The notes under the pieces: model-generated
Database searches by the model: none
What the model was told of the DNA's origin: nothing
The model's input: the letters and a program-made list of their open reading frames with translations, nothing else
Translations under genes and position numbers: made by a program
In this document: one piece after another, positions 7,771 to 11,610 of the stretch
How the letters are laid out: every line of letters starts with the position of its first letter
Position numbering within the stretch: position 1 is the stretch's first letter
Source: Escherichia coli
GTDB taxonomy: Bacteria > Pseudomonadota > Gammaproteobacteria > Enterobacterales > Enterobacteriaceae
Length of the DNA: 64,000 bases
Direction: 5' to 3' (one strand)
NCBI RefSeq assembly: GCF_003334255.1
Contig: NZ_QOWU01000001.1

Positions 7771-7886
<116 letters not shown>

Positions 7887-8685: not shown

Positions 8686-9108
8686 TTATTCCCGACCGCT
8701 GCGCACTTTGCCGCGCATCGCCTTCACGCTTGATTTTTGTGCTTTCGATGCCAGCCTGCGCTCTTTCGATGCACGGGTGGGCCGCGTGGGTCGTCGGGCT
8801 TTTTTTTCTGTTGTTAATTCTTTAATCATAGCCACCAGCCGGGCCAGAGCTGCTTCGCGGTTCAGTTCCTGACTGCGGTATTCCTGTGCCTTAATGACAA
8901 TCACGCCATCACTGCTGATCAAATGATGGCTGGCGGCGAGCAGACGCTCTTTGTAATACTCTGGCAGGCTGGACGCCCGAATGTCAAAACGCAGATGAAT
9001 AGCCGTTGAGGTCTTATTAACATGCTGCCCGCCCGCGCCCTGCGCACGAATGGCGGTGATCTCAAGCTCACCATCGGGAATAGCAACATGTCGGGAAATC
9101 ACAATCAT
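8686..9108 (-). CDS. arfB: Peptidyl-tRNA hydrolase ArfB (alternative ribosome rescue factor B)
   Basis: 140-aa ORF with GGQ motif ([10 protein letters not shown]) and a basic C-terminal tail. Confidence 0.93.
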
Positions 9109-9650
9109 GAAGGTTGTTGCCAGGCGGTTAAGTTCACTTCCAGATTATTCTTATCATCCGATAACCAGATCACGCCATCCTGAATCGTTGCCTGCAGCGT
9201 CATGGTACGATCGGCAAAGGCGCTTACTTTCGCCAGTTGTTCATCGTCCAGATACCAGACGGAAAGATTGGCAAACTGCACACATTTGCTCTGATTTTGC
9301 TGCCACCAGATTTGCGCCGCCCGACTATTATAGGTAAACAGCGCCACTTCTGCGGCCTGGGTGCAGGCTTTCTTAATCCGCCGCTCATCCGGCAGCCCCA
9401 GCTCAATCCACAAATCAATGCCCAGGTGATCGTTACGCAGCCACGCTTCCGGCTCATCATCGGCACACAAACCACGGGTAAATTGCAGACGTTCATCAGC
9501 ATATTTCAGCCACGCCAGCAAGCGCAGCATCATACGCTCCTGGGTTTCTGAAGGATGGCGCGCCAGCGTCAGAGAGGCATCGAGAAACTGGTTGCGGTCG
9601 AGATCGGCCACATTAACCGTCGCTTTATAAATTGTCGCTTTAAGCGCCAT
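9105..9650 (-). CDS. yaeQ: YaeQ family protein
   Basis: 181-aa ORF. Stop overlaps the arfB start by 4 nt. Confidence 0.9.
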
Positions 9651-9815
9651 AAGAAAACTCCTTTCGAATCAGGAGGCCATTGTAACGGAATACGTGCAGT
9701 TGCGGCGCTGATATTGCAGAAATGAGTGTGGTATAGTCACCTTGCGAAACAGAGTTTATCTTCGTAGGCTTAGACTTGCATCCACGGTTAAGTCAGAGTG
9801 CTGACAGGAGGGCAT

Positions 9816-10016
9816 GTGGAAAAATATTGTGAGTTAATACGCAAGCGGTACGCGGAAATCGCCAGCGGAGACTTAGGATACGTTCCGGACGCGCTGGGCT
9901 GCGTTTTGAAAGTGCTGAATGAAATGGCTGCCGACGACGCCCTTTCTGAGGCTGTCAGGGAAAAAGCAGCATACGCTGCGGCAAACTTACTGGTGAGCGA
10001 TTATGTCAATGAATGA
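9816..10016 (+). CDS. yaeP: Small protein YaeP (UPF0253)
   Basis: 66-aa product from a GTG start ([12 protein letters not shown]...) with a GGAGGG Shine-Dalgarno sequence just upstream. The track ORF starts 6 codons earlier. Confidence 0.8.
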
Positions 10017-10263
10017 TACGTATCAACCAATCAATTGTGATGATTACGATAATCTTGAGCTCGCCTGCCAGCATCATTTAATGCTGACACTTGAGCTGAA
10101 AGATGGCGAAAAATTGCAGGCAAAAGCCAGTGATTTAGTCTCCCGCAAAAATGTGGAGTACCTGGTCGTCGAGGCCGCTGGCGAAACCCGCGAGCTGCGT
10201 CTGGATAAAATTACCAGCTTTAGCCACCCGGAAATCGGTACGGTGGTGGTAAGCGAATCCTGA
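10009..10263 (+). CDS. rof: Rho-binding antiterminator Rof
   Basis: 84-aa product [20 protein letters not shown].... Overlaps the yaeP 3' end by 8 nt. Confidence 0.9.
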
Positions 10264-10272
10264 TTGACTTTC

Positions 10273-10305
10273 GCCGGATGCGACGTTTGATGCGTCTTAT
10301 CCGGC
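10273..10305. repeat. Single REP unit between convergent rof and tilS
   Basis: GCCGGATGCGACGtttgatgCGTCTTATCCGGC, REP-type imperfect palindrome. Confidence 0.7.
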
Positions 10306-10311
10306 TTTCAC

Positions 10312-11610
10312 TTAACTAAGCGTTTTCTGCCAGACAAAACTTACGCCATTCTCACCTTCAGCCACACCTTCTTGCGTCACAAATACCCCTGCCGCCGCAA
10401 TCAGCGTTTCGCCATAAAACAGCAGTGGCGTGGTGTCACGTAGCCACGGCGGCACGCCCAGCTCTTGCCAGATTTTCTTTAGCTTACGTCCGCCGTTACG
10501 CCCGACAATATGCAGCAATCCTGGCGCTTTGAAACGCACGCTGACCGCTTCGTCTGCACGCGGAGGGCGAATATCGCCTCCCGCATTAAGCTGTACACTT
10601 CCCAGCCCCGCCGGTAATTCCAGCGGTTGAAGCCACGTCTGCCACGGCACAATGTTTTCGCTTTGCCCGGTGACGGATTTAATCCACCACAGTTGCGACT
10701 GATAGCGTCGGATTTCAAACGCGCCCAAACGTAAACAGGGTGAGGCATCTTCCCGCGCCAGCGCCACTTCCTGCCAGATCCTCACCAACGCGTCGCGGGA
10801 AGGCATCGGTGCATTCTGCCCTGCCAGCCAGCGGCGGATAATCGCCGCGCGGCGGGCATCACTCATCGCCAGCATTGGCACAATCTGCAGCGTCCCCTGC
10901 GGCGATTGACAGTGTGCTAAATCATCTGCCAGCAGTTCATCCAGCAGGCTCTCTTGTTCAGCACAAAGTGCGGCGCTGCGGGCCGTTGCTTCGGCAAAAT
11001 GCGGCCAACGCTGCTGCAATAACGGCACTACGCGCAGGCGCAGAAAGTTACGATCGTATGAGTCGTCCTGATTACTTTCGTCTTCAATCCAGCGTAAATC
11101 ATACTGACGCGCCCACTGCACCAGTTCCCCCCGCGTGCGGGCGAGCAACGGGCGAATAAGCCGCGTTCCGGCAAACTCCGAGACTTCCGCCATAGCCGAA
11201 AGCCCGGCAGGGCCACTGCCGCGTTTTAGCGCCAGCAGAAAGGTTTCACATTGATCGTCGAGATGTTGCGCGGTGACCAGCACTTCACCGGGCAACAAGG
11301 TGCGGGCAAATGCCTGATAACGTGCCTGCCGCGCCTGGGCCTCAATGCCCAGTCCTTCTTGCGCAAGTTGTACGCGTTCGACCACCAGCGGCACCTGCCA
11401 CTGTTGGCAGACGTTTTCGCAATGCGTAACCCAGGCATCGGCATTGGCACTTAAACCGTGATGCACATGAATAGCGCGCAGAGCGACACCCGGATTTTCC
11501 GTCCGCCACTGCACCAACTGATGCAGCAGAACGGTGGAGTCAAGCCCGCCGCTAAAGGCCACCAGAATCTGGCGTGAGGTGAGAAGTTGTCTATTGAGCG
11601 TGAGTGTCAT
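10312..11610 (-). CDS. tilS: tRNA(Ile)-lysidine synthetase
   Basis: 432-aa ORF with PP-loop motif SGGLDS near the N-terminus. Confidence 0.95.

Follow-up and report, generated by a model that had tools for sequence, protein, structure and literature searches.

In the 64,000-nt stretch of Escherichia coli DNA analysed here (the window), the small genes yaeP and rof overlap, and this overlap is real and strongly conserved. Judged by comparison across species, the arrangement is far beyond chance, and rof is probably translated mainly by coupling, through reinitiation by ribosomes that have translated yaeP, within a bicistronic operon (probability about 0.6).

The region from ~9500 to 10700 was 100% identical to that in E. 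coli K-12 MG1655, and 5425 of 5426 complete E. coli genomes carry the locus at ≥95% identity, in the annotated order yaeQ, yaeP and rof, tilS. The yaeP gene (coordinates 9816 to 10016, plus strand), identified as an open reading frame and in the RefSeq annotation, starts with GTG 9816, ends with TGA 10014-10016 and encodes a 66 amino acid (aa) protein. A Shine-Dalgarno (SD) sequence, AGGAGGG (coordinates 9806 to 9812, plus strand), is located 3-4 nt before the GTG and forms a duplex of -10.8 kcal/mol with the 16S 3' end. An earlier reading of the same DNA, made from the sequence only, had described yaeP as a 66-codon gene with a GTG start and a strong SD, and both the coordinates and the SD match the sequence. 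The rof gene (coordinates 10003 to 10263, plus strand), an open reading frame with a RefSeq start at 10003, ends with TGA 10261-10263 and lies in the +1 reading frame relative to yaeP. Two ATG codons in the rof frame are candidate starts. The first, ATG 10003 (ATG-1), gives 86 codons and a 14-nt overlap with yaeP, and the second, ATG 10009 (ATG-2), gives 84 codons and an 8-nt overlap (10009-10016). They are located 11 and 5 nt, respectively, upstream of the yaeP stop codon on the same strand. A second candidate coupled pair was observed on the divergent strand of the same locus, where yaeQ and arfB overlap by 4 nt (ATGA; coordinates 9105 to 9108, minus strand).

A one-genome-per-species scan recovered at least 471 genomes encoding a YaeP relative, and the best 80 of these were all Enterobacteriaceae. 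Across 81 species (the window and the best 80 of at least 471 relatives), the GGAGG of the yaeP SD was invariant, and GTG was the yaeP start in 79. The start context is AUGUG, and an out-of-frame ATG at 9814 opens a 7-codon reading frame (MWKNIVS followed by a stop; coordinates 9814 to 9837). No start ambiguity is predicted for the AUGUG context at yaeP, for which the published DtoStart is 12/14, the SD spacing being optimal for the GTG and not for ATG 9814 (PMC9841429). ATG 9814 was also not conserved, and CGTGTG was found in several species.

The product of rof matched Pfam family PF07073 (Rof/YaeO; E = 1.2e-28) and belongs to the NCBIfam equivalog NF008636 (181.5 bits, cutoff 117, profile positions 1-86 of 86). 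It was identical to the chains in PDB 1SG5 and in the Rho–Rof cryo-EM entries 8PTM-8PTP and 8W8D. Rof binds and inhibits Rho (PMC11018626, PMC11018607). The gene identities given in the sequence-only reading, and its naming of Rof as a Rho inhibitor, are correct, the rof sequence of the window being that of the Rho–Rof chains in 8PTM and 8W8D.

The rof gene was found after yaeP with identical geometry in all of the 81 species (the window and the best 80 of at least 471 relatives), and Serratia also retains the 14-nt overlap. When metagenomes were scanned with a degenerate pattern, 24 more distant Enterobacterales-like rof loci were found, with YaeP 64-88% identical. All 24 have rof overlapping yaeP, by 14 nt in 20, 17 nt in two and 23 nt in two when counted from ATG-1, and GGTGAGCGAnn precedes ATG-1 in each. 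The overlap with the yaeP stop codon is therefore present in 106/106 Enterobacterales loci (81 Enterobacteriaceae, comprising the window and the best 80 of at least 471, together with Serratia and the 24 distant metagenome loci), and is 14 nt in 102 of them and 17 or 23 nt in four. Co-occurrence of the two genes had been proposed as a check, and in other lineages yaeP was found with no adjacent rof. One metagenome contig (L164), which carries a yaeP with 66% identity, keeps the relic GGTGAGCGACCATG with rof absent downstream (ATG TTG ATA ATT AGC TAA); the gene seems to have been lost here, which is rare.

The two candidate starts differ in their conservation. ATG-1 was kept in all 106 loci and ATG-2 in 93, having been lost in 13, and ATG-2 was replaced by ACG in 2/81 Enterobacteriaceae (the window and the best 80 of at least 471) and in 11 of the 24 distant loci. 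A silent choice between GAT and GAC, or between AAT and AAC, in yaeP toggles ATG-2 freely, and the silent TAT to TAC change that would abolish ATG-1 was never seen in the 106 loci. As ATG-1 is present in every locus and ATG-2 is lost in 13, the 14-nt overlap is the conserved geometry. The 86-aa start is used by RefSeq/PGAP, by the NCBIfam Rof model in its length and by PDB 1SG5, and the 84-aa form is used by UniProt and PDB 8W8D. The sequence-only reading had likewise taken rof as an 84-codon gene with an 8-nt overlap; ATG 10009 is indeed present, but the conserved start of rof, from its retention in all 106 loci, is the 86-codon ATG 10003.

The last 30 nt of yaeP, TTACTGGTGAGCGATTATGTCAATGAATGA (coordinates 9987 to 10016, plus strand), contain GGUGA (9992-9996), ATG-1, ATG-2 and the yaeP stop codon. 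This junction block was essentially nucleotide-invariant in the 81 species (the window and the best 80 of at least 471), synonymous sites included, and GGTGAGCGAnnATG was kept in Serratia and in the 24 distant loci. The third-position entropy of yaeP codons 58-66 was ~0, compared with a gene mean of 0.80 bits. In permutation tests, the invariant run of 9 third positions was obtained in 1/200,000, and the 5-codon run upstream of ATG-1, which is outside the overlap, in 830/200,000. As these five invariant codons lie outside the overlap, dual coding does not explain them, and as the rof frame is shut by TGA 9994-9996, the constraint on the junction is at the nucleotide level. The same TGA means that there is no coding in the rof frame upstream of ATT 10000, and an N-terminal extension of rof was rejected because the frame is closed there.

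The GGUGA is an SD-like element 6 nt upstream of ATG 10003, and its pairing to the 16S 3' end (-7.6 kcal/mol, compared with -10.8 for the yaeP SD) was within the top ~10% of random positions. With the DtoStart metric (PMC9841429) set against the published yaeP value of 12/14, the spacing was computed as ~19 for ATG-1 and ~25 for ATG-2, against an optimum of 13-14. The rof gene would accordingly be described as having a weak, long-spaced SD rather than as lacking one completely. The invariant block would fit a rof initiation region embedded in yaeP, together with coupled (reinitiating) translation. A programmed +1 frameshift from YaeP into Rof was also considered and rejected; on inspection of the sequence, the codons leading to the UGA (AAU GAA UGA) are not slippery, and such a fusion is further disfavoured by the position of the SD-like element, which is 14 nt upstream compared with ~3 nt in prfB.

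Folding of the RNA from 9950 to 10060 gave an ordinary energy (z = -0.56), with no significant structure masking the rof start. A masking structure was rejected on this value and on the 3' arm of the predicted hairpin, which was not conserved, and an 'unmasking' form of coupling is therefore without support. An exposed start is equally what would be expected if rof were translated mainly by de novo ribosome binding at GGUGA and ATG 10003, with the overlap reflecting genome compaction. The invariance and pairing energy of the GGUGA are consistent with such independent initiation, and the 16 nt before ATG-1 would likewise be invariant in an autonomous initiation region. However, the aligned spacing of ~19 is well outside the optimum, the SD is far weaker than that of yaeP, and rof was judged to have no SD by Said et al. 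(PMC11018626). In addition, the overlap was kept in every one of the 106 loci though synonymous changes could easily have separated the genes. Independent initiation as the main route is thus a possibility to be taken seriously but one that we do not favour. As the GGUGA is present upstream of ATG 10003, some independent initiation is possible alongside coupling. The translational coupling proposed in the sequence-only reading therefore gains from the fixed junction geometry and the invariant 30-nt block, but its strong form, in which Rof synthesis depends on YaeP translation, is weakened by the GGUGA and the 86-codon start.

The yaeP and rof genes have been termed an operon (PMC11018626, PMC9765468). 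In a consensus scan of the plus strand, no credible promoter-like or terminator-like site was found between yaeP and rof, and the only promoter-like matches, at 9801-9830, were weak and overlapped the yaeP start. Further upstream, the scan identified a putative promoter (coordinates 9708 to 9737, plus strand) made up of a -35-like CTGATA (9708-9713), an 18-nt spacer and an extended -10 element, TGgTATAGT (9729-9737). TGnTATAGT and CTGAT or CTAAT were conserved in 80 Enterobacteriaceae (the best 80 of at least 471) and in the upstream regions of 20 diverse Enterobacterales, and the extended -10 element at 9708-9737 is probably the yaeP-rof promoter.

The 5' leader of yaeP includes a conserved motif, AGAGTTTATCTTCGTAGGCTTA (coordinates 9750 to 9773, plus strand), that was ≥95% conserved at most positions in the Enterobacteriaceae. 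It was also present in some more distant clades and was absent in a short-leader clade. RNAalifold analysis of 27 leaders gave -0.85 kcal/mol with UCUUC:GAGGG as the sole pairing and no convincing conserved structure, while folding of 9744-9860 gave z = -0.87 and a search of this leader against Rfam gave no credible match. A structured 5' leader or riboswitch is unsupported by these values. The motif could be an operator, a site for an sRNA or a protein, or part of the divergent yaeQ promoter.

The proposed route to Rof can be set out as follows. A single bicistronic mRNA carrying yaeP and rof would be transcribed from the extended -10 promoter ~80-110 nt upstream of yaeP. Ribosomes would be loaded efficiently at the strong AGGAGG SD and would initiate at the conserved, and perhaps deliberately weak, yaeP GTG. 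On terminating at the yaeP UGA (10014-10016), they would not leave the mRNA but would begin again at AUG 10003 of rof, 11 nt upstream, to make the 86-aa product, with the weak, sub-optimally spaced GGUGA assisting or holding the restarting ribosomes. ATG 10009, 5 nt upstream of the stop codon, may serve as a minor start in E. coli. Rof output would then be a fixed, probably small fraction of YaeP synthesis, and reinitiation would therefore keep the potentially toxic Rof at a fixed low ratio to YaeP. In E. coli, the REP hairpin that begins 9 nt beyond the end of rof would close the transcript, and a REP element ≤15 nt from a stop codon would probably lower Rof output further. The gene identities, the geometry of the overlap and its conservation, the invariant junction, the SD-like element and the REP are all seen in the sequences, and we infer reinitiation as the main route together with its quantitative consequences. 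A literature search found no experiment measuring rof translation with a yaeP nonsense or start-codon mutant.

The spacer between the convergent rof and tilS genes is 48 nt (coordinates 10264 to 10311), the tilS stop being at 10312. A REP hairpin immediately after rof had been noted in the sequence-only reading, and it was found in this spacer as a consensus pattern match, GCCGGATGCGACG...CGTCTTATCCGGC (coordinates 10273 to 10305, plus strand), beginning 9 nt past the rof stop codon. The predicted hairpin has an energy of -22 kcal/mol (z = -4.5). The REP consensus GCCGGATGCG..CGCATCCGGC occurs in two copies in the window compared with none expected, and both its match to this consensus and its extragenic position identify the element as a REP. 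A sub-threshold match to naRNA4, a REP-derived Rfam family, was also obtained. The second copy (coordinates 7853 to 7882) is located downstream of nlpE, and a REP element therefore flanks the five-gene yae locus on each side, as noted by Said et al. (PMC11018626).

Among the 81 species (the window and the best 80 of at least 471), Escherichia alone carries the REP after rof. In most other genera the rof-tilS spacer contains a hairpin resembling an intrinsic terminator, ACGGGCAGC..GCTGCCCGTTTT, and different palindromic repeats occur in Citrobacter and Salmonella. Since no other genus has kept it, the REP is not integral to the yaeP-rof unit, and on this distribution it is a genus-specific replacement of the 3' hairpin. 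A REP element is reported to reduce the expression of the gene before it when located ≤15 nt from the stop codon (Liang, Rudd & Deutscher 2015, cited in PMC12306157). As far as that citation describes the genes down-regulated in this way, rof resembles them in having its REP, at 9 nt after the stop codon, within the ≤15 nt class, but differs in that its REP is Escherichia-specific, with a terminator-like hairpin in other genera.

YaeP matched Pfam PF06786 (UPF0253/YaeP; E = 8.3e-34, residues 1-65 of 65) and, with 137.4 bits against a cutoff of 99, is a member of the NCBIfam equivalog family NF003436. Its crystal structure was solved under the name Shigella Sf173 (PDB 5H1N), and the protein is described, in the work cited as reference 45 in PMC11018626, as a dimeric helical bundle. 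The AF2 model of YaeP (pLDDT 90.8) has a fold of three helices and superposes on 5H1N; when the model was compared with other structures, 5H1N was the only significant match. As the only significant superposition is with 5H1N, the fold gives no functional lead, and the statement in the sequence-only reading that YaeP has no assigned function still holds. The family is tiny and, in a set of 1.84 billion representatives, makes up 36 clusters at 50% identity. Some database entries for YaeP (clusters P0112, P0134 and P0135) are extended at the C- or N-terminus, one of them a 90-aa form that reads through into the rof region, and these are probably frameshifted or mis-called genes and not real variants.

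The entropies at the three codon positions, computed for the 81 species (the window and the best 80 of at least 471), were 0.29/0.09/0.94 for yaeP and 0.32/0.17/1.08 for rof, and both proteins are therefore under purifying selection. This bears on whether yaeP could be a leader open reading frame only, such that its translation matters and the peptide does not. The gene is short, the initiation region of rof lies at its 3' end, and overexpression gave no phenotype (PMC9765468), all of which would suit a leader. However, the strong selection on the amino acid sequence does not, and YaeP is a stably folded, crystallised protein (5H1N) with a reported abundance of 94.5 ppm (PMC9841429). YaeP is thus a real, folded and abundant protein. 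As the family is conserved in lineages in which yaeP has no adjacent rof, YaeP is more than a leader for rof, and the pattern of conservation together with the crystal structure in effect refutes the leader-only explanation, which is extremely improbable.

The yaeP genes found outside the Enterobacterales have other neighbours. In Vibrio alfacsensis and 38 Vibrio-like metagenome loci (Vibrio-type loci L084:4001-4398 and L103-L178, the latter 38 loci), the next gene after yaeP, on the same strand, encodes a DUF4250 protein (PF14056, 63 aa). In 35 of the 38 Vibrio-like loci the two genes are separated by -4 to +5 nt, TAATG or TGATG was found in 17, and an SD-like GAGGA is present within the last yaeP codons of the Vibrio-type loci. 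A search for literature on DUF4250 found none. Rof and DUF4250 were considered as possible homologues, but no alignment between them was found and this was rejected. In Utexia and various metagenome contigs the yaeP neighbours are varied, and an intrinsic terminator often overlaps the yaeP stop codon. On this distribution, YaeP is an autonomous protein and the linkage to rof an Enterobacterales arrangement, and the exchange of the downstream partner, Rof in Enterobacterales for DUF4250 in Vibrio, may be a small new observation.

The tight junction of the Vibrio-type yaeP with the DUF4250 gene would also be expected if YaeP worked with a small downstream partner. YaeP and Rof could then form a complex, or YaeP could modulate Rof or Rho, with coupling serving stoichiometry, and the partners in complexes are often encoded by tightly coupled small genes. 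However, the absence of sequence similarity between Rof and DUF4250, and the many lineages with a partnerless yaeP that has its own terminator, both argue against a protein partnership. In V. cholerae, yaeP and rof are located on different chromosomes (PMC11018626), and neither termination read-through nor growth changed on overexpression of YaeP, in contrast to Rof (PMC9765468). An AF2 prediction for a YaeP-(G4S)6-Rof fusion with 43 paired rows, a weak test that provided neither PAE nor coordinates, gave a pTM of 0.46 and no sign of a defined interface, and the YaeP part had a lower pLDDT than YaeP alone. A partnership between the two proteins is therefore improbable.

A broader and speculative reading, which we regard as rather unlikely, is that yaeP is a conserved 'upstream partner' gene whose 3' end would host the initiation region of a small downstream gene, the partner having been exchanged in evolution. 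It would be Rof in Enterobacterales, with a 14-nt overlap and the invariant GGUGAGCGAnnAUG, and DUF4250 in Vibrionaceae, with other Gammaproteobacteria having none. If so, YaeP, through its translation or as a protein, would gate the output of small regulators, and the physiologically relevant Rof would be the 86-residue form produced by reinitiation.

The locus has an earlier literature. Pichoff is said in reviews to have described the yaeP-rof locus in 1998. Morita et al. (mBio 2022, PMC9765468) suggested from the overlap that yaeP modulates rof expression, and Said et al. (Nat Commun 2024, PMC11018626) described the locus with an 8-nt overlap, rof without a canonical SD, REP elements and two alternative starts, the overlap being universal in Enterobacteriaceae and absent in Vibrionaceae. 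Nothing on the structure of the rof operon was found in Zhang et al. 2024 (PMC11018607), and nothing further about YaeP is given in a 2025 review of Rho. Because Morita 2022 (PMC9765468) and Said 2024 (PMC11018626) had already published the overlap, the idea of coupling and the linkage specific to Enterobacteriaceae, the finding is ordinary. The additions made here are refinements, namely the conserved 86-codon start, the invariant GGUGA junction, the conserved promoter and leader, the restriction of the REP to Escherichia and the DUF4250 partner in Vibrio.

Compared with the E. coli yaeP-rof pair as published by Morita and Said, the genes, the overlap, the idea of modulation, the bracketing REP elements and the taxonomic spread are the same. 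However, those papers quote an 8-nt overlap, whereas the 86-codon ATG, with a 14-nt overlap, was found here to be universally conserved, and they deny rof an SD, whereas an invariant GGUGA within a 30-nt invariant block was found here. The gene downstream of the Vibrio yaeP, encoding DUF4250, was not reported there. The corrections are modest; the overlap is 14 nt, the 30-nt junction with its GGUGA defines the key element, and the link between YaeP and rof is lineage-specific.

Rho is an essential terminator, and Rof, which inhibits it globally, is toxic in excess. If Rof is made only by ribosomes finishing yaeP, the control of yaeP would be the control point for Rho inhibition, and the relevant control elements would be the conserved promoter, the leader motif and the GTG start. 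Coupled overlapping gene pairs are known in E. coli, including trpE-trpD, trpB-trpA and galT-galK, for which the expected mechanism is termination-reinitiation. The yaeP-rof pair resembles these, and also yaeQ-arfB, in that both genes are on the same strand, the downstream start is near the upstream stop codon and the downstream SD is weak. It differs from them in having a longer overlap, of 14 or 8 nt compared with 1 or 4 nt, and two candidate restart codons.
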